In this document: positions 1 through 52,250 of the stretch, in pieces
Layout of the letters: each line of letters starts with the position of its first letter
Numbering within the stretch: the first letter of the stretch is position 1
Origin: a virus
Strand: one strand, 5' to 3'
Virus record (IMG/VR): IMGVR_UViG_3300035228_001078
DNA length: 64,000 nt
The notes under the pieces: generated by a model
What the model was told of the DNA's origin: nothing
Databases searched by the model: none
The model's input: only the letters and a program-made list of their open reading frames with translations
Program-made: the position numbers and the translations under genes

Positions 1-286
1 TGCCGTTATCGTCATGCATAGATATGCCAGAATTTTTATGCCAGACATAAAGTTGAACATCAGCTTCTTGATATGGGAGAACATGATGTTCCAAACATTC
101 TAACACAGATTGTTTTAAATCGCCCTCCAGGTCAGTCATGGTAACAACTCCAGTGTCACCAACCTTTAGAGAGTCATCCCAAAATAACTCACTAACAGCC
201 CAAACATTTTTTTCTAAAGAATCCTCAAGAAAATTTTCACAGTTATGTAAAACTTCTTCAGTCAGTACTCCATGTCTTATAATCAT
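1..286 (-). CDS. 2OG-Fe(II) oxygenase family protein (runs off the window edge)
   Basis: Manually translated, not in the ORF track: MIIRHGVLTEEVLHNCENFLEDSLEKNVWAVSELFWDD...QLYVWHKNSGISMHDDNG. The YxW...GIxxHxD segment is typical of prolyl-hydroxylase-like 2OG oxygenases. Open to position 1. Confidence 0.7.
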   Translation of the reverse strand, partial: MIIRHGVLTEEVLHNCENFLEDSLEKNVWAVSELFWDDSLKVGDTGVVTMTDLEGDLKQSVLECLEHHVLPYQEADVQLYVWHKNSGISMHDDNG

Positions 287-704
287 AATAATCTTTTTTA
301 TAATAACGACCCAAGATATTACTGTTGTAATACTTGGGGTCACCGTTTTCAAGAGATTCTGTTAGGACAGAATGGACAAATAATTGTTTGGTTTCCTCGT
401 AGTTAACTTTACCCTTTGTCAATTGTAGCGAAAGTATTTCTCGTCTGAAGGAACTATTTCCAATTGTACGGCGTTCTCCATTAAGTTCATCAGAGCTTCC
501 GTAATATTTTTTCCAGTCGCTCTCACTTCTAACCCTCCTACCTCCACCTCTAGGCTTTCGTAGTTGGTGAAAGTATTTCCTACCGATGTATTGTCTACCG
601 GATTCGAGATTTGTAATCCGATAGACAAAACCGATAAAGTCACCAATGTTCTCAGATAAAAAAGGTTGTCCTTCAAAAATCCAGGGGTTTTCATAATCAA
701 CCAT
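258..704 (-). CDS. GIY-YIG family endonuclease (endonuclease II/Seg-like)
   Basis: GFVYRITN...YIGRK motif, YYGSS, conserved E (NYEE) and YYNxNI. Confidence 0.85.
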   Translation of the reverse strand: MVDYENPWIFEGQPFLSENIGDFIGFVYRITNLESGRQYIGRKYFHQLRKPRGGGRRVRSESDWKKYYGSSDELNGERRTIGNSSFRREILSLQLTKGKVNYEETKQLFVHSVLTESLENGDPKYYNSNILGRYYKKDYYDYKTWSTD

Positions 705-739: not shown

Positions 740-2743
740 TCAGACTCCTTTAACTAACATAGCAGCACGCTTGTCACCAAACTTTTTCATTCTTTTTTGT
801 CTGTCAGACAGTCCATCATTGCTGTAATCGCGGTATGTATTACCGTGACCATCAGTAGCAGTTGCTTTTTGTTCTACAACAGATGGATCATTCATAAAAT
901 CATCAATGATCTCAACGATCTGAGCACCAGTGAGTTGCATCATGATCTCTTCTGCTTCCTCTACACTCTCCATGAGATTGTTTTCATCAAGGAATGTAAG
1001 GATGATGTCATAGATGTTGTAATCATCTCTAGTAAACTGAGGATGACCATCTAACTTCATACCTCTCTTCTTCTCAAGAGCTGCTTTCTTTTTCTTAGAC
1101 TCTTCACCAGTACCATCAGAGTATCTATTGTCATGCTCTGCTTTCTTCTTCTTAGCCTTCTCCTTGATACGCTCCTTAGCAGCAGCAGCTTCCTTATCAG
1201 AGATGCGATATCCATCACGATCAGTCTTTAACTTCTCGTCAGGCTTATCATATCCTTCTACATTCAGAGTCTTAGGATAGTCCTTGTCACCTTTCTTAGC
1301 AGGTGACTCACCACGCTTACGCTTGGCATGAATGTTATCCCAGAGACCTTTCTTCTCTTCGATGGTCTCACCTTCCTTCACACAGTTAGGTACATCCTTA
1401 CCGCCTTTCTTCTTAGTTCCTTTTGCCTTGTATCCATCCCAGCAGGTGCTAGCACCAACATTCTTCCGTGCCTGCCCTAGACCTTCAACCATTTCACCTT
1501 CTGGTTCAAATGATTGATTCATCTGCTTGATCATGGCATCCATCTTCATCTTTCTATCACCAAGTTTACCAGCAAGTCCCTGATTGCCAGTAGGTCCCTT
1601 AACTTGTTTCTTAGCAAGTGGGTTTTTGATATCTAGATTAGGATGACCAATGTATCCATCTCCAGGTTTGCCACCAACAAACTCATTCATCTTAATTTTT
1701 TCTTGTTGCTTAGCCTTCGTTACAGTTGGTTTTGGGGTACGATTGATTTTTATACCCAGTTTTTCCAAACTACCTTGGGCTTTTTTAGTTGCGTCGTCAA
1801 CCATGCCTGCCAAACCTTCAGTCATTTCACCTTCTGGTTCATGAGAGTTCTTCAGTGAAGAGATCTCTTTACTACCAGATGCTCCAGACTTTACCTTAGA
1901 AGCAAGACTAGGGAAGTTCTTTGCCCACTGTTGCATTGGTGTAGCACCATTGCTCGCACCAGTACGAGTCGAGGCAGAACCGTCTTTGTTCGTTTTTGGT
2001 GCAGATACTGATGAGCGTTCTTTGGTGGGGGTAGTCTTGGATTGATTAGCCTTCTGCTTTGCTGCCTGTTGCTTGGCATCATTTGCTGCAGGCGACCTCT
2101 CATCAGTAACCTTAGAAGCTACTGTTGCTGAAGAAGGAGTAGCGGGTTTTGTATCTGACTTAGTAGAAGTATCGATAGGAGCAGCACTCTTAGTTTTCAG
2201 TGATGGTGGAACACCTTTACCACCTTGGTCACGATATTTTTGTGCTTTCGCAATTTCTGGAGAAACAGAATTACCCTGTGGGTTTCCTGAGAAGAAATTG
2301 CCTGCAGCTCTCTTCGCATCACGAAGTTTCTGCATCAAATTAAATTCCGCAATGATAGCTCTTGCCTGCCGCTTCTCTGCAGTGTCAAGATTCTCATAGA
2401 TTCTAGGGTTGACTGCATGTAATGCAGCGCGGAACTCCTCACCAATGACATCTTTGGGAAGTGCTTCAATCAGGTTGTCAATCAACCTAGAACTTTGATA
2501 TCCCTCTTCAATAAGAATTTCCGCAAGGGAGAGATAGTTCTCTGCCATTGCGGGATCCATTGCTTTCAGTCTCTTAAGATAGAAAGACTCACAAGTACAC
2601 TTGTCTACTTTCTTCTTATCAACTTTTTTTCCTTTCGGTTTGTCGTCACTCTTATTCCAGTCCATTGCCGACTTCTCATGCTTGCCACCTTCAGCGATGG
2701 TTGCATAAGATTCGCTTAATTTCTTCAGTTGAGAAGCGTCCAT
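740..2743 (-). CDS. Lysine-rich modular protein; putative head-internal polyprotein with repeated gp21-type cleavage sites
   Basis: 667 aa of short basic modules separated by hydrophobic-X-E motifs, including EPEGEM(T/V)EGL twice. Late promoter GATAAATA at 2771-2778. Confidence 0.6.
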   Translation of the reverse strand: MDASQLKKLSESYATIAEGGKHEKSAMDWNKSDDKPKGKKVDKKKVDKCTCESFYLKRLKAMDPAMAENYLSLAEILIEEGYQSSRLIDNLIEALPKDVIGEEFRAALHAVNPRIYENLDTAEKRQARAIIAEFNLMQKLRDAKRAAGNFFSGNPQGNSVSPEIAKAQKYRDQGGKGVPPSLKTKSAAPIDTSTKSDTKPATPSSATVASKVTDERSPAANDAKQQAAKQKANQSKTTPTKERSSVSAPKTNKDGSASTRTGASNGATPMQQWAKNFPSLASKVKSGASGSKEISSLKNSHEPEGEMTEGLAGMVDDATKKAQGSLEKLGIKINRTPKPTVTKAKQQEKIKMNEFVGGKPGDGYIGHPNLDIKNPLAKKQVKGPTGNQGLAGKLGDRKMKMDAMIKQMNQSFEPEGEMVEGLGQARKNVGASTCWDGYKAKGTKKKGGKDVPNCVKEGETIEEKKGLWDNIHAKRKRGESPAKKGDKDYPKTLNVEGYDKPDEKLKTDRDGYRISDKEAAAAKERIKEKAKKKKAEHDNRYSDGTGEESKKKKAALEKKRGMKLDGHPQFTRDDYNIYDIILTFLDENNLMESVEEAEEIMMQLTGAQIVEIIDDFMNDPSVVEQKATATDGHGNTYRDYSNDGLSDRQKRMKKFGDKRAAMLVKGV
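1481..1841. repeat. 28-nt direct repeat (26/28 identical) encoding the EPEGEMxEG linker
   Basis: accttca-ac-catttcaccttctggttca at 1481-1508 and accttca-gt-catttcaccttctggttca at 1814-1841. Confidence 0.9.
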
Positions 2744-2769: not shown

Positions 2770-2898
2770 CTATTTATCGTACTTCTTCTTTAGCACTCCA
2801 TATATCCATGCTTGAGAAAGGGAGGTGGGACCTCCCTGTTCTTTTATCTGAAGATACTTATTATAGGCTGAATCCCGCAAACGAGTTTGCTTTGACAT
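2770..2898 (-). CDS. Small hypothetical protein (42 aa) overlapping the nrdB 3' end
   Basis: Manual translation MSKQTRLRDSAYNKYLQIKEQGGPTSLSQAWIYGVLKKKYDK. Fills the gap between nrdB and the 667-aa ORF. Confidence 0.4.
   Translation of the reverse strand: MSKQTRLRDSAYNKYLQIKEQGGPTSLSQAWIYGVLKKKYDK
2771..2778 (-). promoter_or_regulatory. T4-type late (gp55) promoter
   Basis: GATAAATA on the minus strand, about 28 nt upstream of the ATG at 2743. Confidence 0.6.
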
Positions 2899-4048
2899 CT
2901 TGTTTGATTCCTCCGACAACATAAGACTCTACCTCCGTTTCTTGTGGTGCTACTTGCAGACCCTTGGATGAAATCCAATGCTCAGTCCATGGTAGTGGAT
3001 TATTTCTTGCAGCAATGTCATAAATCGGATCAAGACCGATTGCTTTCATGCGACGATTAGCAACCCATTCAACATATTGTGATAGAAGCTTTTCATTGAG
3101 ACCAATCATAGATCCGTCTTTGAACAGATACTCTGCCCATTGCTTCTCCTGATTAACAGCTGCTTGGAAAGTCTGGATCAACCAGTCTTTTTGTTCTTTA
3201 ACAATCTCGACCATCTCTGGGTCATCGCCTTTCTTCCAGTTGTTGAGGATGTTTTGAGTAATTGCAAGATGCTGATTTTCGTCTCTTGCGATGAGAGAGA
3301 TGATTTTAGCGGATCCTTCCATAAGCTTGAGTTCACCAAACGCAAACGAGCAAGCGAACGAGACATAAAACCTGATGCCTTCGAGAATATTGACATTGGC
3401 TACAGCACGATACAGTTTTGTCTTTAGTTCTTTCTTCGCAAATCTCTGTGCATCAGAGTTATTCCAATTGGCATCCCACATGCTACCACCATCCCACTCA
3501 TGAGCGATGTTGATAAACTCATCATACGCTTGAGTAATAGAAGCAGCTCTCTCAAGGATCCTCTCATCATGAATGATGGTATCAAAGATCTCAGAAGGAT
3601 CACTATAGACATTTTTAATGATATATGTGTATGAACGACTATGGATCATCTCCATAAACTGCCACACATTCATACAAGCTTCCAACTCAGGAAGCGAACA
3701 GTATGGCGAGAATGCCATACCAGGACCTCTACCTTGAATAGAATCAAGCATTACCTGATACTTCAGGTTGCTAGTGAAGATATGTCTTTGCTCAGGTCTT
3801 AGATCATGATAATCGGATCTATCTTTCTGCAGAGAAATCTCTTCAGGTCTCCAGAAATAACCCAACTGCTGCTGAGTCATCTTCTCAAAGAAAGGATACT
3901 TATAAGAATCGTATCTCTGAACTCCTAGAGGAGCACCAAAAAACATTGGTTGCTTTTTCGTGTCCACATCGGTCGTATTAAAGACCGTCATACCCTCAAC
4001 TTTAGTTTTAGGCATGTCTGCGTTTGTTCTAAATTGCACAGGCGTCAC
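2861..4048 (-). CDS. nrdB: Ribonucleotide reductase class Ia beta subunit
   Basis: FWRPEEI, EMIHSRSY, EGIRFYVSF, RDENQH, VAPQETEVESY. True start may be GTG at 4039. Confidence 0.97.
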   Translation of the reverse strand: MTPVQFRTNADMPKTKVEGMTVFNTTDVDTKKQPMFFGAPLGVQRYDSYKYPFFEKMTQQQLGYFWRPEEISLQKDRSDYHDLRPEQRHIFTSNLKYQVMLDSIQGRGPGMAFSPYCSLPELEACMNVWQFMEMIHSRSYTYIIKNVYSDPSEIFDTIIHDERILERAASITQAYDEFINIAHEWDGGSMWDANWNNSDAQRFAKKELKTKLYRAVANVNILEGIRFYVSFACSFAFGELKLMEGSAKIISLIARDENQHLAITQNILNNWKKGDDPEMVEIVKEQKDWLIQTFQAAVNQEKQWAEYLFKDGSMIGLNEKLLSQYVEWVANRRMKAIGLDPIYDIAARNNPLPWTEHWISSKGLQVAPQETEVESYVVGGIKQDVKANSFAGFSL

Positions 4049-6317
4049 ACTCTGATTGTTTTTCTAGGTTATTGAGTAAGTTTTCTACACTAGGAATTTC
4101 TTCTTCTACTTCGTCAGTCTTGTTATCATATGTATTCTGATAGTAGGAGGTCTTCCAACCGTACTTATATGTAGTCAATAGATCTCTTGCCATCACAGAC
4201 ACAGGTACTTCATTATCAGGATAGTTACTGGGGTTGTAACTCCAGTTACCAGAGATAGCTTGGTCAAAGAATTTCTGCATAACAGAAACTACTTTAATAT
4301 ACCCATCATTACTTTCCATGTCCCAGAGAAGGGTGTAGTGACTCTTGTGAGTATTGTACATTGGTACAATCTGCTTAAGTGGTCCCTTCTTGGATTTTTT
4401 AGTGGACAAGAATCCTCTAGGTGGTTCGATTCCATTGGTTGCATTTGACACAACGGAGCTGCTCTCTGAAGGCATTTGTGCGGACAGTGTTGAGTTCCTA
4501 AGACCGTGGGTGGTGATAGATGCCCTAAGACTTTCCCAATCATACTTTAACCTATGAGGAACAATATCGTCTACATCTTTTTTATAGGTATCAATAGGAA
4601 GGATACCGTCAGAATATTTAGTACGATCAAAATATCCACAAGGTCCGTACTCAATAGAGAGTTGATTGGATGCCTTTAGAAGATAGTATTGGAAAGCTTC
4701 TGTCAGATCATGAACCATCTGATGTGCTTCTGGATCATTATAACCTACTTTATGCCTTGCCAGGTAATGTGCCAGACCAATATAACCAATGCCCAGAGAA
4801 CGACGATTCTTAGTGCCAATTTCAGCTGCTTTGACTGGATACCCTTGGAAGTCAATCAAGGCGTCTAGAGCACGCACAGAGAGGTCACAGAGTTCTTCCA
4901 GCTCATCCAGGTTACGAAGCTTGCCTACATTGATAGCAGACAGAATGCACAAAGCAATCTCTCCTTCACCATCAATATGCTGCAGCGGTTTAGTTGGAAG
5001 TGTGATCTCTTGACACAAGTTACTCATCTCTACCTTGTCTTTAAAGGAAGAGTGAGTATTGCAGTGGTCAAGATTCATAATATAAAGACGACCAGTCTCT
5101 GCTCTCTCCTTCAGGAGATTGAGAAAAAGTTCTTGAGCCTTGATAGTCTTTCTTGGAATAGTGAGATCTGATTCATAGTCCACATAGAGACTATCAAACT
5201 CGTCAGTGCCAAAAGCATCATACAAACCTGGGACATCGTGAGGACTGAATAGCGTGATGTTTCCATTTTCGATGAACCGCTCGTAGAAGAGCTTGGTGAT
5301 TTGGATGGAGTAGTCGAGTTTTCTGACACGATTGTCCTCGGTTCCTTTGTTGTTCTTAAGAACAATAATATCTTCTATCTCTTTGTGCCAGATAGGAAAG
5401 TGAACTGTAGCAGAACCACCTCTGATGCCGTTTTGTGTGCAGCATCTGACAGTGCTTTCAAACTTTTTAAGGAAGGGGATAACGCCTGTGTGTTGTACCT
5501 CGCCGCCTCTAATCTTAGCGTTGATGCCACGAATTCTGCCTGCGTTAATGCCGATACCAGCCCTTTGTGCGACATATTTACCAATAGCCATATCACTGCT
5601 AAAGATACTATCGAGGGTGTCATCAACATCAACGAGAACACAAGATGCATATTGACGGAGCGGTGTCCGAACTCCTGCCATGACTGGCGTTGGGATGTTG
5701 ATTTTGTGTTTTGAGATTGCATCGTAGTATTTTTTTACATAATCCATGCGAGTCTCTTGAGGATAGTCGCTATAGATGGTGGCTGCAATCAAGATATACA
5801 TGAACTGAGGAGTTTCGTAGACATGTCCTGTACTACGATCCTGCACTAAGTATTTATCCGCAACTTGTCTAAGCCCAGCATAGGTAAACAGATAGTCTCT
5901 GTCATGATCGATCATATTGTTGATCTGATCAAACTCCTCAGCAGAGTACTTTTGAAGGATCTCAGGGTCATATACGCCCCTCTCAATGCCAATCCTAATA
6001 TGATCGGTTAGATTGCTATGTTCATGCATCTTACCCCACAGTTGTTTCCTCAGAGAGAACAACAACAATCGAGCTGCTACGAATTGATAATTGGGATTTT
6101 CAAGGTCGATGAGATCAGAAGCACTACGGACCAAGATCTCTTGGATCTCTGCAGTTGTGATACCATCATAAAATTGGATCCCAGAATTAATTTCAATCTG
6201 AGATGCAGACACACCTGTGAGGTCAGTACATGCCTCATCAACCATCTTGTGCATCTTATTGAGGTCAAGAGATTCTACTTGTCCAGACCGCTTCTTAACC
6301 TTTGTCCCGTTGGTCAT
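4029..6317 (-). CDS. nrdA: Ribonucleotide reductase class Ia alpha subunit
   Basis: N-terminal ATP cone, PTPVMAG, SCVL, SNLCQEI, C-terminal CxxC (CDAC). No intein-size insert. Confidence 0.97.
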   Translation of the reverse strand: MTNGTKVKKRSGQVESLDLNKMHKMVDEACTDLTGVSASQIEINSGIQFYDGITTAEIQEILVRSASDLIDLENPNYQFVAARLLLFSLRKQLWGKMHEHSNLTDHIRIGIERGVYDPEILQKYSAEEFDQINNMIDHDRDYLFTYAGLRQVADKYLVQDRSTGHVYETPQFMYILIAATIYSDYPQETRMDYVKKYYDAISKHKINIPTPVMAGVRTPLRQYASCVLVDVDDTLDSIFSSDMAIGKYVAQRAGIGINAGRIRGINAKIRGGEVQHTGVIPFLKKFESTVRCCTQNGIRGGSATVHFPIWHKEIEDIIVLKNNKGTEDNRVRKLDYSIQITKLFYERFIENGNITLFSPHDVPGLYDAFGTDEFDSLYVDYESDLTIPRKTIKAQELFLNLLKERAETGRLYIMNLDHCNTHSSFKDKVEMSNLCQEITLPTKPLQHIDGEGEIALCILSAINVGKLRNLDELEELCDLSVRALDALIDFQGYPVKAAEIGTKNRRSLGIGYIGLAHYLARHKVGYNDPEAHQMVHDLTEAFQYYLLKASNQLSIEYGPCGYFDRTKYSDGILPIDTYKKDVDDIVPHRLKYDWESLRASITTHGLRNSTLSAQMPSESSSVVSNATNGIEPPRGFLSTKKSKKGPLKQIVPMYNTHKSHYTLLWDMESNDGYIKVVSVMQKFFDQAISGNWSYNPSNYPDNEVPVSVMARDLLTTYKYGWKTSYYQNTYDNKTDEVEEEIPSVENLLNNLEKQSECDACAI

Positions 6318-7282
6318 ACTTTTTTCCACTCAGTAAATTTAACTTGTGCTTCTAGCCCAGAATATGTATTCGATTCTAGCGCATCGTTCACATCGATGCC
6401 TGCTAAAACCATATCATTGATGTCTTTTTGTCTTATACTTGTTGGCCAGATGACGACTTTCTCGCCTCTAGATATAGCTCCTCTGATGCGTCCAACAATC
6501 TCGCCATTACGGGGCTCGTTATCAAAAGTATAAATGCAATCGCTTCCCTCAAGACAACTAAGGTCACCGTCAGCACCACACAAAGCCACACTATTGTCGA
6601 TGAAAGTGCTGTCAAAGGGTCCTTCGACCACATAGATTGGTAATCCTTTATCGACTTCATCAAATCCATAAATTTTTGGTGCCTCATCGTTAAACATAAT
6701 AGTTATATATTTGATATGGTTTGGCAATAATGCCCTACCTTGAATCCCCACAAGATCATTTTGATACCATAAAGGTATGATAATCCTGGGTTCTTCGTTC
6801 TTTGTGTCCTTGAATGTTGGTTTTATACTGTTAACAAATGTTTTAAATTTGTCAGCATAATAAAACTGATTAGAGTCTAGTTTTCTCTGCTTTAGATACT
6901 CTCTAGCACTATCTACCGCAGAACACTTCGGTAGATTCAACCTTGCTTTGAATTTTGGTTTCTCAAACTCAAACACAGGGTCTTCGACTACAGTCGCTTT
7001 TCCAGTCAACCCCTGTTTGAACCTCTCCATAACATATCTTTTATAGAGAGTTCCATCAATCTTCTTGATGAAGTTGCTGAAAGACATCGACGCGCCACAA
7101 TTATGACACTTGTAGTTAGCGTCATTCTTCATGGCATAGATGTACCCTCTCGCCTTGTTCTTATACTTTTGGGAGTCCCCACAGATGGGGCACCTAAAGT
7201 TATAGAGGTCAGCTTTGACTCTCTTGAACTTCTCGAATCTAGCTGAGAGTAGACCTATGTACTTTGAATCTATCAGATTCAT
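6314..7282 (-). CDS. gp61: DNA primase
   Basis: Zn ribbon CPICGDS...CHNC and TOPRIM motifs EGPFDS and FDNEPRN. Confidence 0.95.
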   Translation of the reverse strand: MNLIDSKYIGLLSARFEKFKRVKADLYNFRCPICGDSQKYKNKARGYIYAMKNDANYKCHNCGASMSFSNFIKKIDGTLYKRYVMERFKQGLTGKATVVEDPVFEFEKPKFKARLNLPKCSAVDSAREYLKQRKLDSNQFYYADKFKTFVNSIKPTFKDTKNEEPRIIIPLWYQNDLVGIQGRALLPNHIKYITIMFNDEAPKIYGFDEVDKGLPIYVVEGPFDSTFIDNSVALCGADGDLSCLEGSDCIYTFDNEPRNGEIVGRIRGAISRGEKVVIWPTSIRQKDINDMVLAGIDVNDALESNTYSGLEAQVKFTEWKKV

Positions 7283-9507: not shown

Positions 9508-10791
9508 CTAGTCCTTTTTCTTTTTATCCATTAAAGCACCCTTACCATGCTTAGCACGGATTTGTGCTTTGACAATATCCATAGCACTCATACCCTTTCC
9601 GTATTTCTTCTCAGTCTCTTTTTGAAGAGCGGTCTTTCCTTTACGCTTTTTATCATCATCAGATCTTTTGGTAGGGCGATCATACCGATCATTACCATCA
9701 ACACCACCGCGTTCCATGCGGCGATCTTTCATAGCATCTGATGCTTCTTCTTTAAGCTTAGCAGCATCAACTTGAGCCCTCTTTTTACTAGAAGGTAATT
9801 CACCTAGACGCTGTTGTAACGATTTGCCAGCTTCAATTGAAGAATCAGATTTGAATATACCAGGGTTGGCAGTAGAGTTCATACCTTTTTGGTTTTTAAA
9901 ATCCAGACCTGCTTTCTTCACTAAAGCTTTAATCCCCTTGATCGCTCCACCGTTAGCGTCAAGTTTCTGCATGTTCTTCTCAGCTCTCGCTCTTGTCGCT
10001 GCTCTTGCTGCCGCAGCATCTGCTGCCATAGATGCACGATAATCGGTTGCTTGTTCCTTCTGTATTTTTTTCTTAATATCAGCAATAGTATCCTTTACAT
10101 TTTCAGAGGATCCAGTGTCAACAGTACTGAGTTTCTTCGCTTCAGGACCTGCTTCACCTTTAGTACCTTGTTTAGGTGCAGAATCTGTAGCCTTTGATGC
10201 TGCCTTAGTCTTAGCCTTAGTCTTAGTCTTAGGCGTATCCTTCAGACCATATCTAGGAGCATCAGGTACTTCAGAAGCTTGCCTAATTCCAAAACGCTTT
10301 ACTTGTCTATCATACGATGACATCTTATATCCAGGATCACTCTTATCTTCTTCAGAAGATGGTCTCCTTTGGCTCGAGGCAACACCACCAGCCTCATAGA
10401 AGTTCTTAACGGTTTTGACCAACCCCTCATTGACATCAGGATTAATAACGACTTTATTCTTTACAGGCTTCTCTTCGATCGTTATTTCTTTTTCGTCTGA
10501 GTTGGTTGCCTTCTCAGACTTATAGAGCTTTTTTTCGGATAATTCTCCAACCTTGGTGCGGAGATGAAGTTCTAATTCTTCTTTCTTAGTGCGCCTTGCT
10601 TTGTCTGCAGCAATAGCGGCACCAACTGTTTTACGACGCTTTTTCAGATAACCATCAGACTTATCAACATCGCCATCATTATCAATGTCATCATCCTCTT
10701 TGCCCACAGGATCTAAAGCTTCAGGCATGAAGACATTTGCCATGCTGCTAAGCATGATATCCTCTGCGGATTGCTCAATAAAATTAGCCAT
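9508..10791 (-). CDS. Lysine-rich modular protein; putative head-internal polyprotein
   Basis: Modules (LDPVGKEDDDIDNDGDVDKSDGYLKKRRK; ASDAMKDRRMERGGVDGN) separated by MPE|A, LSE|K, VNE|G, QKE|Q, KEE|A. Late promoter at 10829-10836. Confidence 0.6.
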   Translation of the reverse strand: MANFIEQSAEDIMLSSMANVFMPEALDPVGKEDDDIDNDGDVDKSDGYLKKRRKTVGAAIAADKARRTKKEELELHLRTKVGELSEKKLYKSEKATNSDEKEITIEEKPVKNKVVINPDVNEGLVKTVKNFYEAGGVASSQRRPSSEEDKSDPGYKMSSYDRQVKRFGIRQASEVPDAPRYGLKDTPKTKTKAKTKAASKATDSAPKQGTKGEAGPEAKKLSTVDTGSSENVKDTIADIKKKIQKEQATDYRASMAADAAAARAATRARAEKNMQKLDANGGAIKGIKALVKKAGLDFKNQKGMNSTANPGIFKSDSSIEAGKSLQQRLGELPSSKKRAQVDAAKLKEEASDAMKDRRMERGGVDGNDRYDRPTKRSDDDKKRKGKTALQKETEKKYGKGMSAMDIVKAQIRAKHGKGALMDKKKKD

Positions 10792-37401: not shown

Positions 37402-37938
37402 TTAGGTTTCCACTTCAATAGTGTAAATTAAATACTTAAATGTTGCGGTTGCTGTAAAGTATGTATAATCCTGATCTGTCGCTGTAAATTCTAGTGCTGA
37501 TAAGGCAGTTGGATATAAATCTTTGAATTTCACTCTTGCACTAACATTAAAATTACTATTCAATATTGCAAGAGTTCCGTCACAAAATTGTTCGTTAGGA
37601 TCTTTTAATCCATCTTCCTTAGTAATAAGATCTTGAAACTCTTCGACACTATTAGGGTAACCCAGTCCATAGATCCAAGTATGGATAGACAGGTAGTTTT
37701 CTAAATCTTCATCTACAATAAATTGGATTGTTAAATCTTCAAACTCAATGTTGTCTCCAGGAACATCAATTGCTTTAAGATAGTTTGCTACTTTAATTCC
37801 ACCTAAAGTAATGCCTGGTATCTTCGCACTGTTGGAGAAGAAATCAACCTTAGGAGTTTTTGTTAAATTAAATTTAAATCCAACAGGCGATAGATAATTT
37901 TTATTCTCTACCTGTTTGCTGAGAAAATTGTAAGACAT
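37402..37938 (-). CDS. gp3: Tail tube terminator / tail completion protein
   Basis: NYLSPVGFKF, IPGITL, PGDNIEF, FIVDEDLENY. Confidence 0.88.
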   Translation of the reverse strand: MSYNFLSKQVENKNYLSPVGFKFNLTKTPKVDFFSNSAKIPGITLGGIKVANYLKAIDVPGDNIEFEDLTIQFIVDEDLENYLSIHTWIYGLGYPNSVEEFQDLITKEDGLKDPNEQFCDGTLAILNSNFNVSARVKFKDLYPTALSALEFTATDQDYTYFTATATFKYLIYTIEVET

Positions 37939-38126
37939 TATATGCTCATGGTATTATTAGTTTTAAGTGGTCCTTGTGGAGGGACTATTGGCATATTATA
38001 TTTCCTATAGTTCGTATCTATAGGAGCAAATTTTAAATGATATTTTTTCTTTCCAGTGGGTTTTATCTTATGTGACTCTCGTTCAGCTCTACTGTAAGCT
38101 TCTAAGCAAAAATCTTTGAATGTCAT
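37938..38126 (-). CDS. Small basic protein with a capsid-targeting-like leader (62 aa)
   Basis: MTFKDFCLE|AYSRAERESHKIKPTGKKKY... Confidence 0.6.
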   Translation of the reverse strand: MTFKDFCLEAYSRAERESHKIKPTGKKKYHLKFAPIDTNYRKYNMPIVPPQGPLKTNNTMSI

Positions 38127-38716: not shown

Positions 38717-40162
38717 TCACATGAGGTTCTTAACAACAGTACGCTGGTAGTAGCGGTTGCTGTTAGAAGTAATACGACCAAGACCCTGAGCGGTGCCTTC
38801 AGCGTAAGGATTGGAAACAAGACCATAGCGGGTCTTGAAGCCAATTTTGGGCTGGAAGGTGCCGTCGTTGACGGCGCGTACCATCTGGAGGGGTACATAA
38901 GGACAGTAGAAGAGACCAGCGTCATATGGGCTGGTTCCCTTGTAACCAACAACATAGTACTGGTTAGCAGCACTGTTGGCAGAGAAAGGATCGATGAAGA
39001 CTCTGTACTTACCGTTGATAGTACCAGCGAAGGTATTACCAGTGTCGTCAACCTGAAGGTTGGCGTTCAGAGCAGGGGTGTAATCAAGTACACCAGCCAT
39101 GGTCAGAGCAGAAGCGACATCAGCACTTGTCATGATGATGTTGCCCTTTCCACGACGAGTTCTTTGGGCGATGCGGTTTGCATCTCTCTCGATGTTGAAC
39201 AGGAGACCCTTGAACTTCTCAACCGACCAGCGACCGTTGGAGTCAACATCCAGGTCGAAGAAACCAGCGTTGGCAACATTGACCTGTGAACCAGCTTCAG
39301 CAGTCTTGTAGATTGTACGGATAACCTCGCGGTTGATCTCAGCAAGAATCTCGCTAGACAAGATGTTAGCAAGTTCTGCTTCAGCGTTAAGACCGTGGAT
39401 AGCACGAAGGTCTTGTGCCAGTTCCATGCTGTACTCTGCTTTCAGAGCACGGGACTTAGCGGTTACGGTGACTTTCTCGATCGAGAATGCCATCTCGTTG
39501 AAGTCGCCATTGCTGCCGTCTCCGAGTGCCTCAGAGTCGCCAGTTGCCATACCTTGACCCAGTGAATACTGAGATTGTACAGCGTCAGAAGCAGCTCCTT
39601 CCAAGATTGCGGGGTTAGTACCACGCTGAGTGCTTGTAGAACCGAAACCAACGGCACCGCCGTCATCAACAGCATCGGTGTAGTCGCCTTGCGTTGACTG
39701 ACCAATGTTTGTGCCTGCCTTGTTAGCAGAGAATGCGGAATCAGGCTCGTTGAAGAACGACTCAGTACCAGACTGATTGGTGTAGCGTGAACGCATTGCG
39801 AAGATCAGTCCAGTAGGACCGTTCATCGGCTGAACACCAGCAAGCTCATATGCAACCAGGTTAGGCATTGAGCGTCTGATCAGAGAGATCAGAACGGGGT
39901 CGAAACCTGCGGTAGGACCTGCGTCAGCAGAACCAGCACCGAACGCGCCTGAACCGCCTACAGCGTTACCAGAGTTGGTAGGTGCAGACTCGGTAAGCAT
40001 ACCGTTGCCGCTAGAGAAAGCAGCTTCTTCTTTGAGGAAACGCTCTTGGTTCTCAAGGAGAATAGCGGTTGTAGCGCGTCTATGTGAGTCCTTAATTGGA
40101 TCTACGCCTTCGGCGTCGAGAAGCGGACTCCACTTCTCAAGTAATTGTTGTGCGTTATACAT
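38717..40162 (-). CDS. gp23: Major capsid protein
   Basis: LLENQE, LTE|S cleavage site, GVQPMNGPTGLIFAMR, KSRALKAEYS, FYCPYVPL, GFKTRYG. Confidence 0.98.
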   Translation of the reverse strand: MYNAQQLLEKWSPLLDAEGVDPIKDSHRRATTAILLENQERFLKEEAAFSSGNGMLTESAPTNSGNAVGGSGAFGAGSADAGPTAGFDPVLISLIRRSMPNLVAYELAGVQPMNGPTGLIFAMRSRYTNQSGTESFFNEPDSAFSANKAGTNIGQSTQGDYTDAVDDGGAVGFGSTSTQRGTNPAILEGAASDAVQSQYSLGQGMATGDSEALGDGSNGDFNEMAFSIEKVTVTAKSRALKAEYSMELAQDLRAIHGLNAEAELANILSSEILAEINREVIRTIYKTAEAGSQVNVANAGFFDLDVDSNGRWSVEKFKGLLFNIERDANRIAQRTRRGKGNIIMTSADVASALTMAGVLDYTPALNANLQVDDTGNTFAGTINGKYRVFIDPFSANSAANQYYVVGYKGTSPYDAGLFYCPYVPLQMVRAVNDGTFQPKIGFKTRYGLVSNPYAEGTAQGLGRITSNSNRYYQRTVVKNLM

Positions 40163-40192: not shown

Positions 40193-41242
40193 TTACTGTT
40201 GAGCTGTTCCAAGAGCTTTTAGATAGGAGTGCATAGAGCCAGAGACTTCTACACCACCTGCTTCTACGCCCTCAGAGAGCGTTTCAGTTTTTGCGGGAGC
40301 TTTTGCAGGGTCACTTGGGAAATACGATTCCTTCAGTGTTACAAGCTTCTCGCGATACAATTCCTCACCCTCAAACTCAACACCTTCAGACAGTGCGACC
40401 AGTTTCTCTCTTTGTGTAACAGCAAGACCCTCGGTTACTTCACGGAAAATTCCATCTGCTGTAGATTCTCCAAGGCGCTTGTTAAGAGAAATGTTCGACT
40501 CAATCTGTTCGTTAAGTCTGGCTTCCATTTCATCAAGTTTGGAGACCATGTTCTCCAATACATCATACTTATCTTCAGGGATTGTTACATAATGATCTTC
40601 AAATAGACCCTTCATTCCTTGCAGGAACGATTCAGTCATTTCGGTCTTCAGACCGTGTTCTACTTCGAGTGTGTTTTCAGTTACCCACTCTTCAGAAACA
40701 TACTCAAGATATGCATCGACCCGCTCAACGAGCTCAGTCTTTACTTCCTCAAGATGCTCAGAAAGAGTTGCTTCGTATTGAGCAGCCATTTCTTCTTGTA
40801 CAGCAACTACCTTAGCGGTAACAACTGCCTCAAAGATTGTGCGAGCTTTATTCTGAAACTCTTCGGAGAGTTCCTCGCCGCCAAACAGGGCGGAAAGATC
40901 TTCTTCGATATCGACAGAAGGAGTCTCCTCCTCTTTCATGGTCTCATCTTCAGCTACGACCTCTTGACCTTCTTCTGCTTCAGCGGTATCGCCAGCAGAA
41001 AGAGATTGCATAGGTTCAGCAGCTTTAGCGCCACGGTTGACGATATCTCTTACTGTTTTGATTTTGGGTTCTGCGAATTTCGCGGAGTCGTCGTCGGGCT
41101 TATAGTTCTCGGGGGTAGGACCACCGAGGACTTCATAACCACCGAGACCAGCTCCAGGATCAGCAAGCTTGGGCATCCCCTCGCCAGCTTTCGCACCCCT
41201 TGTTACAGGATTTTCCATTTCTTGTAATTCCTTAGCGGACAT
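40193..41242 (-). CDS. gp22: Prohead core scaffold protein
   Basis: Acidic coiled coil, KARTIFEA, YLEYVSEEW, LKESYF; synteny. Confidence 0.93.
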   Translation of the reverse strand: MSAKELQEMENPVTRGAKAGEGMPKLADPGAGLGGYEVLGGPTPENYKPDDDSAKFAEPKIKTVRDIVNRGAKAAEPMQSLSAGDTAEAEEGQEVVAEDETMKEEETPSVDIEEDLSALFGGEELSEEFQNKARTIFEAVVTAKVVAVQEEMAAQYEATLSEHLEEVKTELVERVDAYLEYVSEEWVTENTLEVEHGLKTEMTESFLQGMKGLFEDHYVTIPEDKYDVLENMVSKLDEMEARLNEQIESNISLNKRLGESTADGIFREVTEGLAVTQREKLVALSEGVEFEGEELYREKLVTLKESYFPSDPAKAPAKTETLSEGVEAGGVEVSGSMHSYLKALGTAQQ

Positions 41243-41295: not shown

Positions 41296-41946
41296 TTAGA
41301 TACTTGAGAGGAACTTATTGAACAGAGCAAGCTTCTGTTCCTGCAGGGCTCTCTGGTCTACAAGCGTATTAATTTGCTTGTATGTCTTCTCCACAAGTCG
41401 TTCGCGGACAATACTACCGTCCATTACCCAATCTTTTCCTTCCATAATTCCCGATACAAATGCATCAGGTGCGGAGGGATCTGCTACGATATCAGCAGCA
41501 GTTGCAAGCATAAAATCGTCAGAAACAATTTTAATGCCATTCTCGTTAACGGCAAGTGAACCAAGACCACGAGAGGATACACCCAACTTAACACCTTCAT
41601 CGATAAGATTTTGTGCAATCTTACCCATAGGGGTGTTCAGGATTTTTGCCTTACCAATAAAATTAGTTCCTTCTTCCCTAAGTGAAGTAATTTTATGGGA
41701 AACGCGATCCAGGTTAAGGGTAGGTCCTTCGGGATGTCCGAGTTCACCGAGAGCTCTGCCTTTACCGACAAAACTTTCGTTGTAACGACCTACTTCTCTA
41801 CGAAGGGTATCCATAGGATACATCCGACCATTTCGGTTCTTGATGTCACCTTGCAGGAATACACCTTCAATGTACATAGATTTCTTACCGTTGCGTTCTT
41901 CAACGATAACTTCGACCTGTTCGATTTCTTCCGTGATCAGTTTCAT
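41296..41946 (-). CDS. gp21: Prohead protease
   Basis: MKLITE, NRNGRMY, GELGHP, GVSSRGLGS, DIVADPSAPDA. Confidence 0.97.
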   Translation of the reverse strand: MKLITEEIEQVEVIVEERNGKKSMYIEGVFLQGDIKNRNGRMYPMDTLRREVGRYNESFVGKGRALGELGHPEGPTLNLDRVSHKITSLREEGTNFIGKAKILNTPMGKIAQNLIDEGVKLGVSSRGLGSLAVNENGIKIVSDDFMLATAADIVADPSAPDAFVSGIMEGKDWVMDGSIVRERLVEKTYKQINTLVDQRALQEQKLALFNKFLSSI

Positions 41947-51692: not shown

Positions 51693-52250
51693 TTAGCAGT
51701 TCCACGCCCTAAGAGACTTATTAATCCTGCTATCGGGATCGCCTGCTGTCTTCTTAGATGTAAGTTTCTTCTTCATGCCTTTCATTCGCGCACAAAAACT
51801 CGCTCTACGAGGGTTCCCAACTTTTTTTGAAGGTGCCTTAAGATCGCTTCCTGGGTTTTGACGCTCATACGACTTCCGTCCTTTTTCATTTAATCCACCT
51901 TCACTGTTTTTACCTGACTTTTTCTGCCAGTCTTCGCCCATCATTTTACTATCAACATTCTTTTGACTAAAATCCCAGTTCTTTGGATCTCCCTTGAGGA
52001 TTTTATTCAAAGTATTCATTCTTCTCTGCTGAGCTTTCTTTATCCCAGCTGAGTTATCAATGGTATCCCCTATCTGATATTGTCCAGGCGGACTGGGATC
52101 GTCATGATTTCTCATGCCAGGAGGTTTAGCTTCATTCATTTTCACGCACGAGTCATCAACCTTATCAGCTTCAAAGTCAGCTGTGGTTGTGACCTTTTTC
52201 TTCTTCGCTTCTGCTAAGAATGCGTCAATATCAGAGTATGTTCCGAACAT
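51693..52250 (-). CDS. Basic modular protein (C-terminal DUF6321-like module), candidate internal head protein
   Basis: FLAE|A, MNE|A and MGE|D junctions; WQKKSGKNSEGGLNEKGRKSY...RRASFCARM. TATAAATA at 52278-52285. Confidence 0.65.
   Translation of the reverse strand: MFGTYSDIDAFLAEAKKKKVTTTADFEADKVDDSCVKMNEAKPPGMRNHDDPSPPGQYQIGDTIDNSAGIKKAQQRRMNTLNKILKGDPKNWDFSQKNVDSKMMGEDWQKKSGKNSEGGLNEKGRKSYERQNPGSDLKAPSKKVGNPRRASFCARMKGMKKKLTSKKTAGDPDSRINKSLRAWNC

Follow-up and report, generated by a model that had tools for sequence, protein, structure and literature searches.

A shuffled mosaic protein of T4-like cyanophages as candidate prohead cargo for multi-site cleavage by a gp21-type protease

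T4-like cyanophages rank among the most abundant marine viruses and, to our knowledge, nothing in their genomes has been recognised as a counterpart of the T4 internal proteins. In a 64,000-nt virus sequence (the whole stretch analysed, hereafter the window), ORF 740..2743 (P0001; minus strand; stop codon included in the coordinates) codes for a mosaic, Lys-rich product of 667 aa. The question raised by this locus is whether the product acts as one chain or is packaged into the prohead and cut after Glu into a set of small basic peptides, as the original prediction had proposed.

The gene, its locus and its late-promoter motif

The phage of the window is a T4-like cyanophage, whose best nucleotide matches are 74-78% identical. 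Upstream of ORF 740..2743 lie nrdB (2861-4048) and nrdA (4029-6329), and on its downstream side there is a segE-type GIY-YIG endonuclease gene (258-704). The 667-aa ORF with its late-promoter motif was confirmed, together with every peptide string that had been quoted from it, and the pI of the product is 9.4. Pfam returned no credible family for it (with E up to 1 over its full length and up to 10 for six parts), no sequence homology to T4 IPI, IPII, IPIII or Alt, and no DUF6321 (PF19846), a 72-residue C-terminal Cys-containing basic domain. The PHROGs matches were families of unknown function only. That the ORF might be spurious was rejected, given the more than 1700 homologues with conserved domains obtained in a word-based search.

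A late-promoter-like ATAAATA (2771..2777, minus strand) ends 27 nt before the ATG of ORF 740..2743. It falls inside the early/middle gene block, and the adjoining genes are replication genes. The window contains 16 copies of this motif, all 16 on the coding strand, and ten of them are located no more than 80 nt upstream of an ORF start, namely those of gp22, the portal, the sheath, the cytidylyltransferase, ORF 740..2743 and five others. Most of the copies precede genes of virion proteins. This bias in strand and position makes a late promoter credible for ORF 740..2743 despite its replication-gene neighbours, and expression from a late promoter is likely on these grounds.

The same phage has genes for a Peptidase_S77 gp21 and a gp22 scaffold. 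The gp21 prohead protease (41296..41946, minus strand; Peptidase_S77, E 5e-33) is the proposed processing enzyme, and the gp22 scaffold (T4_CASP; 40193..41242, minus strand) has comparable V-T-E|G-L and L-S-E|G sites. The original prediction had pointed to L-T-E|S in gp23 (38717-40162), L-S-E|G in gp22 and I-T-E|E in gp21, and the three proteins and their sites were all verified.

Anatomy of the protein and shuffling of its modules

An AlphaFold2 (AF2) model of the product was built on 54 relatives. Residues 1-18 (2690..2743; this and the following coordinates are on the minus strand) form an N-terminal amphipathic helix (3-17 in the model), a leader module ending in I-A-E|G. They are followed by a folded helical N-domain at residues 43-135 (2339..2617; pLDDT above 90), which also stands alone at the N-terminus of other proteins. 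Residues 136-309 (1817..2338; pLDDT below 50) are a low-complexity disordered spacer, variable among orthologues, that ends in an E-P-E-G-E-M-T-E|G linker. Alignments of relatives then delimit two lineage-specific modules (310-354 and 355-420; 1484..1816), ending in a second linker, E-P-E-G-E-M-V-E|G. In the model, disorder extends from about residue 150 to 430, that is, over about 280 residues.

The CW module (residues 421-457; 1373..1483), defined by a logo of 182 occurrences, is a beta-hairpin (438-456) with two Cys and a net charge of +6, and the GLW module (458-496; 1256..1372), defined by its logo and by stand-alone homologues, consists of a short helix (467-476) and a basic tail. The computed masses of these modules, if they were released, are 3.9 and 4.5 kDa, respectively. 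Residues 497-552 (1088..1255) carry a T-D-R-D-G motif and a Lys-rich helix, as seen in the alignments of relatives and in the model, in which Lys-rich helices span 516-560. The protein ends with a conserved acidic helical C-domain (553-620; 884..1087), whose helical acidic part is 577-617 in the model, and with a tail (621-667; 743..883) that is basic and variable in the alignment of relatives.

The product had been described as short modules throughout rather than one domain. A chain of separable modules was indeed found, but the folded domains had been over-segmented: the two 'acidic helical modules', taken as separate units, are in the AF2 model parts of the folded helical domains 43-135 and 577-617, so that the hydrophobic-x-E motifs within them are probably structural. 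A search of the PDB with the model gave no fold match above Z 4.6, and neither folded domain had a recognisable match; the BFVD fold search returned cyanophage relatives only, and the ESM Atlas search unnamed viral clusters only.

An exhaustive phmmer search matched 960 protein-cluster representatives (clusters at 50% identity). The orthologues that align over the full length are colinear; their N- and C-domains are conserved and the middle varies, modules being gained, lost and duplicated there. Outside this set of orthologues, proteins of 66 to more than 900 residues contain the CW, GLW, T-D-R-D-G, L-E-K-K-R-G and G-K-P-G-D-G-Y units in numerous arrangements and with differing copy numbers, which answers positively the question, raised with the original prediction, of whether other cyanophages have the modules in another order. 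Among isolate genomes the CW/GLW pair was found in 71 records, 70 of them from cyanophages, and a module query gave one weak match to a Roseobacter phage. Cultured phages that carry these modules are P-TIM40, S-ShM2, P-HM2, Syn1 and S-CAM7. IMG/VR yielded more than 586 matching stretches. The best 80 of these contexts are all T4-like cyanophage; about 70 of them place the gene immediately downstream of a cytidylyltransferase gene, five have the nrdB-ORF-segE arrangement of the window, and three lie amid baseplate genes. Four of the six matches in 'genome' assemblies are cyanomyovirus-like contigs inside assemblies or bins that bear the name of another taxon or of the host. All 84 readable contexts of the fused forms are T4-like cyanophage. 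ORF 740..2743 thus fits a cyanomyovirus class of mini-module mosaics (PHROGs 28131, 11470, 22379, 27523 and others), in which CW and GLW occur in T4-like cyanophages.

The window itself holds two further genes of this kind. ORF 9508..10791 (minus strand, with a late motif) is another mosaic Lys-rich late ORF belonging to this class, and shares an acidic D-N-D-G-D module with the virion protein S-SM1 gp191. The third, ORF 51693..52250 (minus strand, with a late motif), has a DUF6321 module and a leader ending in F-L-A-E|A; in L013-L015 the orthologous slot holds a protein with CW, GLW and DUF6321, and DUF6321 is also present in a relative (P0087).

The GLW module is found unfused as well. Two contigs, L088 and L089, have it as a separate gene of 43-50 aa, surrounded by further very small ORFs for basic products. 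The portal, scaffold and capsid genes of L089 follow one another in the order typical of podoviruses, and the GLW gene is placed between the latter two. Each of the two small proteins aligns with phrog_16028 along all of its 50 residues (E 4e-18 and 2e-16), and several cyanophage proteins start directly with the GLW module. These stand-alone genes and GLW-first proteins indicate that GLW can work on its own at about 5 kDa, which is the size predicted for the released peptide.

Candidate cleavage junctions and the leader

Motif counts were compared with the expectation from shuffles of the ORF 740..2743 product that keep local composition. [ILVM]-x-E was seen 21 times versus 9.2+-2.5 expected, and [ILVM]-x-E-[GSA] nine times versus 2.0+-1.4 expected (P about 5e-4). 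No enrichment was observed in controls with Asp or Lys at P1, with i+1, i+3 or i+4 spacing, or with mirror-type motifs, except that E-x-hydrophobic was mildly enriched, as amphipathic helices would give. Among the window ORFs of more than 300 aa, ORF 740..2743 has the highest ratio of observed to expected motifs, the ratios of gp22 and gp21 being high too.

Ten junctions had been listed as cleavage sites, about five to seven of which are both disordered and conserved (E18, E309, E420, E457 and E496, with E354 and E624 in close relatives only), while the remainder do not combine the two properties. The N-V-E|G junction fails as a strict hydrophobic-x-E site, its P3 being Asn and its P4 Leu. Conservation is 0.80 at E18, with 1.00 at its P3, and 0.96 at E309. 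Where the chain is disordered, conservation is 0.82-0.96 for junction Glu residues versus 0.11-0.54 for Glu outside junctions and linkers; when motif Glu were compared with other Glu over the whole protein, their conservation was not significantly better (P 0.11). Homologues colinear over the full length with no conservation of the Glu junctions had been named as evidence against processing. The colinearity was observed, but the junction Glu residues are kept, and for this reason the objection as a whole does not apply.

The conserved block of CW (182 distinct occurrences) runs from [VIL]-x-E-[GS] through to P-N-C-V-K-E. Directly before CW, Glu-[GSA] is present in 140 of 154 distinct upstream contexts and P3 is hydrophobic in 110 of the 154; Glu directly precedes GLW in 92 of 99 contexts. 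On its C-side CW mostly has V-K-E with Glu or Asp after it, and the end of GLW has Asn at P3, both being a poor fit to the T4 logo. Local alignments to relatives begin at 417-420 and 463 and stop at 457 and 496, and alignment ends accumulate at residue 618. The context counts of CW and GLW and these alignment ends agree with the proposal that module edges coincide with conserved Glu-small junctions. In some orthologues an extra CW copy is inserted junction to junction, from one V-D-E to the next. Both E-P-E-G-E-M-x-E-G linkers are encoded by a 41-nt repeat (1481-1521 and 1814-1854), whose copies lie 333 nt apart, in frame, and are identical at 26 of the first 28 nt. Judged from the sequence, this linker repeat is probably a route by which modules are gained and lost in frame.

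Residues 10-18 are part of a leader with the consensus S-E-S/A-Y-x-x-I-A-E|G, which is N-terminal in 63 of its 66 occurrences and stands ahead of differing downstream modules, including GLW directly. With I-A-E|G at residues 16-19, ORF 740..2743 has a leader of 10-20 residues that ends in L/I-x-E before a small residue. In T4, a protein with Asp in place of Glu at P1 is still targeted but no longer processed. The T4 capsid-targeting sequence (CTS) is MKTYQEFIAE, and gp21 cleaves after L/I-x-E (PMC8442874, PMC9026906); the likeness of the leader to it is one of pattern, not homology, as far as the sequences indicate. A stricter T4-CTS-like pattern occurred 12 times in 331 module proteins versus 0.15 expected. 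Three of the 12 are N-terminal, two of these abutting a CW module (L013 and L014), and nine come right after a CW module. Across the six frames of the window this pattern was found in two ORFs only, both times at residue 1-2. One is the cytidylyltransferase, which has an L-N-E|A leader; the other (37938-38126) encodes a basic product of 62 aa and lies just past gp23 on the downstream side. For the module proteins overall, a hydrophobic-x-E-small site within the 25 N-terminal residues was not significantly enriched (23% versus 14% in neighbouring genes, P 0.24). A literature search found capsid-targeting sequences tied to cyanophages in no paper beyond a T4 review, and a search for the module motifs gave nothing relevant.

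Virion data, competing explanations and meaning

Virion data are available for relatives. The product of the gene just downstream of the cytidylyltransferase in S-SM1, gp191 (T4-GC1454), was detected in virions by mass spectrometry (PMC3037559 Table S8), and the cytidylyltransferase/NMNAT-like enzyme was seen in virions of S-SM1, S-SCSM1 and S-CREM2 (PMC3037559 Table S8, PMC9602691, PMC10665884). P-TIM40 gp184 carries CW and GLW and has a Lys-rich module in common with S-SM1 gp191. Direct similarity between ORF 740..2743 and S-SM1 gp191 was not found, so that a virion location of the ORF 740..2743 product is indirectly supported, through the network of shared modules.

The architecture and the junction conservation are well established. 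When they are combined with the leader, late motif, protease and virion findings on relatives, the explanation that fits best is targeting and processing in the manner of T4. We put slightly less than an even chance on the product being a mini-module mosaic cargo of cyanomyoviruses that is packaged and cut at several sites by a gp21-type protease. The 18-residue leader would carry it into the prohead, as the CTS does for T4 internal proteins, and the protease would cut after Glu at exposed hydrophobic-x-Glu|Gly/Ser sites, at E18, E309, E420, E457, E496 and perhaps E354 and E624. The proposed products are a 291-residue N-fragment, two 4-kDa basic peptides (the CW hairpin and the GLW helix) and a C-terminal fragment, which would stay associated with the DNA and may pass into the host at ejection.

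The same junctions would be conserved without multi-site cleavage if they were kept as part of the module and as the site of in-frame linker recombination. The product would then be a late, possibly virion-associated mosaic that functions as a single chain, with no cut or at most one that removes the N-terminal leader, Glu-Gly/Ser serving as structural caps and the acidic linkers being flexible, an explanation that we regard as possible and well short of probable. Consistent with it, the linker is repeated at the DNA level (26/28 nt, 333 nt apart) and hence usable as a recombination handle, the x-E-G residues lie within the CW conserved block, P3 or P1' is off consensus at several junctions, the whole-protein test of Glu conservation was not significant, and T4 internal proteins are cut once only (PMC8442874). 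However, it leaves three observations unaccounted for: the hydrophobic P3 in 71% of diverse upstream contexts, the T4-CTS-like elements right after modules, and the occurrence of GLW elsewhere as a separate gene of 43-50 aa.

It is unlikely, in our estimation, that the product is a non-packaged basic protein acting late within the cell, for example in DNA binding or compaction or in host interference during assembly, with a motif enrichment incidental to an amphipathic Glu/Lys-rich composition. The position of the gene beside nrdA/nrdB and a segE homing endonuclease, away from structural genes, and the mild E-x-hydrophobic enrichment would suit such a role, but the ORF has its own late-promoter motif within the early/middle block, the N-terminal leader is recurrent, most relatives adjoin the gene of a virion-packaged enzyme and some lie amid baseplate genes, and module-sharing relatives are found in virions (PMC3037559). 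The repeated E-P-E-G-E linker flanking short modules also recalls a RiPP-like precursor, in which recognition repeats flank multiple cores of secreted or modified peptides. This is extremely improbable, and it was rejected on the lack of an adjacent maturation enzyme or exporter: the neighbours are nrdB and segE, with no modifying enzyme, dedicated protease or exporter nearby, the modules are Lys-rich and of 35-110 residues, and every context read is that of a lytic myovirus.

Among known systems, T4 IPI, IPII and IPIII resemble the packaged and processed cargo proposed here in being basic, in belonging to a T4-type phage with a Peptidase_S77, in having a short leader that ends in I-A-E before a small residue, and in being non-core and variable between related phages (PMC9026906, PMC8442874). 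They differ in size, being of about 10-20 kDa, and are cut once, whereas ORF 740..2743 has 667 aa with several candidate internal sites; unlike them, its product is mostly disordered and made of shuffled mini-modules. Cutting of one chain at many x-x-Glu sites by a gp21-family protease, with some products staying with the DNA, is known for T4 gp22, gp67 and gp68 and for inner-head proteins of phiKZ, 201phi2-1 and SPN3US (PMC9026906, PMC5694885), and is what is proposed for ORF 740..2743. In proteins of the T4 core and phiKZ type, most fragments are either propeptides that are removed from the head or mature domains of large size, in contrast to the proposed products of ORF 740..2743, discrete conserved mini-modules that are also separate genes, and the phiKZ cleavage motif is S/A-x-E, unlike the hydrophobic-x-E of ORF 740..2743. 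S-SM1 gp191, P-TIM40 gp184 and S-ShM2 gp184, hypothetical proteins encoded downstream of the cytidylyltransferase, belong to the same mosaic class and have CW, GLW, Lys-rich and acidic modules in common pairwise, but ORF 740..2743 occupies a different slot, after nrdB with segE, and has other N- and C-domains. The proteins of phrog_16028 (50 aa, basic, from podovirus-like head clusters) are full-length homologues of GLW encoded by tiny unfused genes without Glu junctions.

On a broader reading, which we advance tentatively and consider rather doubtful, each hydrophobic-x-Glu|Gly module would be an independent head-internal cargo in a library shuffled by recombination among marine cyanomyoviruses. 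Such modules would be fused in phages that have a Glu-specific prohead protease and would be tiny separate genes in those that lack one; they would be released in the capsid, ejected with the DNA and re-assorted in frame via the linker DNA. A DNA-condensing or anti-defence role of the released modules is speculation. The mosaic class comprises about a thousand clusters at 50% identity, and the window alone has three of its genes. If its members are capsid cargo cut by gp21, they would identify what T4-like cyanophages inject besides DNA, would account for a large block of 'hypothetical' hypervariable cyanophage genes, and would be a case from nature of modules shuffled in frame around protease sites.

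The late-promoter motif and the linker repeat

All 16 occurrences of ATAAATA in the whole window (16/16) lie on the minus, coding strand. The total number is not above chance, but the bias in strand and position marks this heptamer as the late-promoter core. Within the 667-aa Lys-rich mosaic late ORF (740-2743, minus strand), both E-P-E-G-E-M-x-E-G linkers are encoded by a 41-nt direct repeat (1481-1521 and 1814-1854), the copies of which are 333 nt apart and in frame.

Other ORFs with mosaic structure or leaders

A second Lys-rich mosaic late ORF (9508-10791, minus strand) has in its N-terminal part an acidic D-N-D-G-D module that is also present in S-SM1 gp191, a virion protein. The last 80 residues of this ORF, at the C-terminus, were found again in about 100 cyanophage records. 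In one record, these 80 residues are annotated within a 'cytidyltransferase'. The third mosaic late ORF (51693-52250, minus strand) carries a C-terminal DUF6321 module and a leader ending in F-L-A-E/A (the slash marks the candidate cut after Glu by a gp21-type protease); in the IMG/VR loci L013-L015, its slot is occupied by proteins combining the short modules CW and GLW with DUF6321.

Leaders were also found on two further minus-strand ORFs. The cytidylyltransferase-like enzyme (PF01467; 10821-12023) has a late motif and the leader M-K-S-F-F-H-F-L-N-E/A. Relatives of this enzyme were detected in the virions of S-SM1, S-SCSM1 and S-CREM2 (PMC3037559, PMC9602691, PMC10665884), and the S-SM1 enzyme has a leader of the same kind. 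Directly downstream of gp23 (38717-40162), a basic 62-aa ORF (37938-38126) starts with M-T-F-K-D-F-C-L-E/A, resembling the T4 capsid-targeting sequence; when the window was scanned in all six frames, only one other match to such a pattern was found, which makes a total of two. The 62-aa ORF is thereby a candidate for a true internal-protein analogue.

Modules on other contigs and a possible segE cassette

Runs of tiny Lys/Arg-rich ORFs of 39-112 aa, including stand-alone GLW and DUF6321-like proteins, were observed in two phage contigs, L088 (1980-8000) and L089 (5200-6400). In L089, which shows the portal-scaffold-capsid gene order typical of podoviruses, the run sits between the scaffold and capsid genes. 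Four contigs syntenic with the window's T4-like cyanophage (L084-L087) come from assemblies labelled Flavobacteria, Gammaproteobacteria, Euryarchaeota and Synechococcus; L084 is the 188-kb NZ_RMVE01000006.1, labelled Nonlabens xiamenensis, and the Synechococcus-labelled contig is located in a host bin. All four appear to be of phage origin, having been carried along in the assembly or placed in a wrong bin.

Directly downstream of ORF 740-2743 lies a segE-type GIY-YIG homing endonuclease gene (258-704, minus strand). Because the pair of mosaic gene and segE was seen again in five further loci (L004, L005, L058, L060 and L062), the two genes may travel together, as a cassette, into the slot downstream of nrdB.
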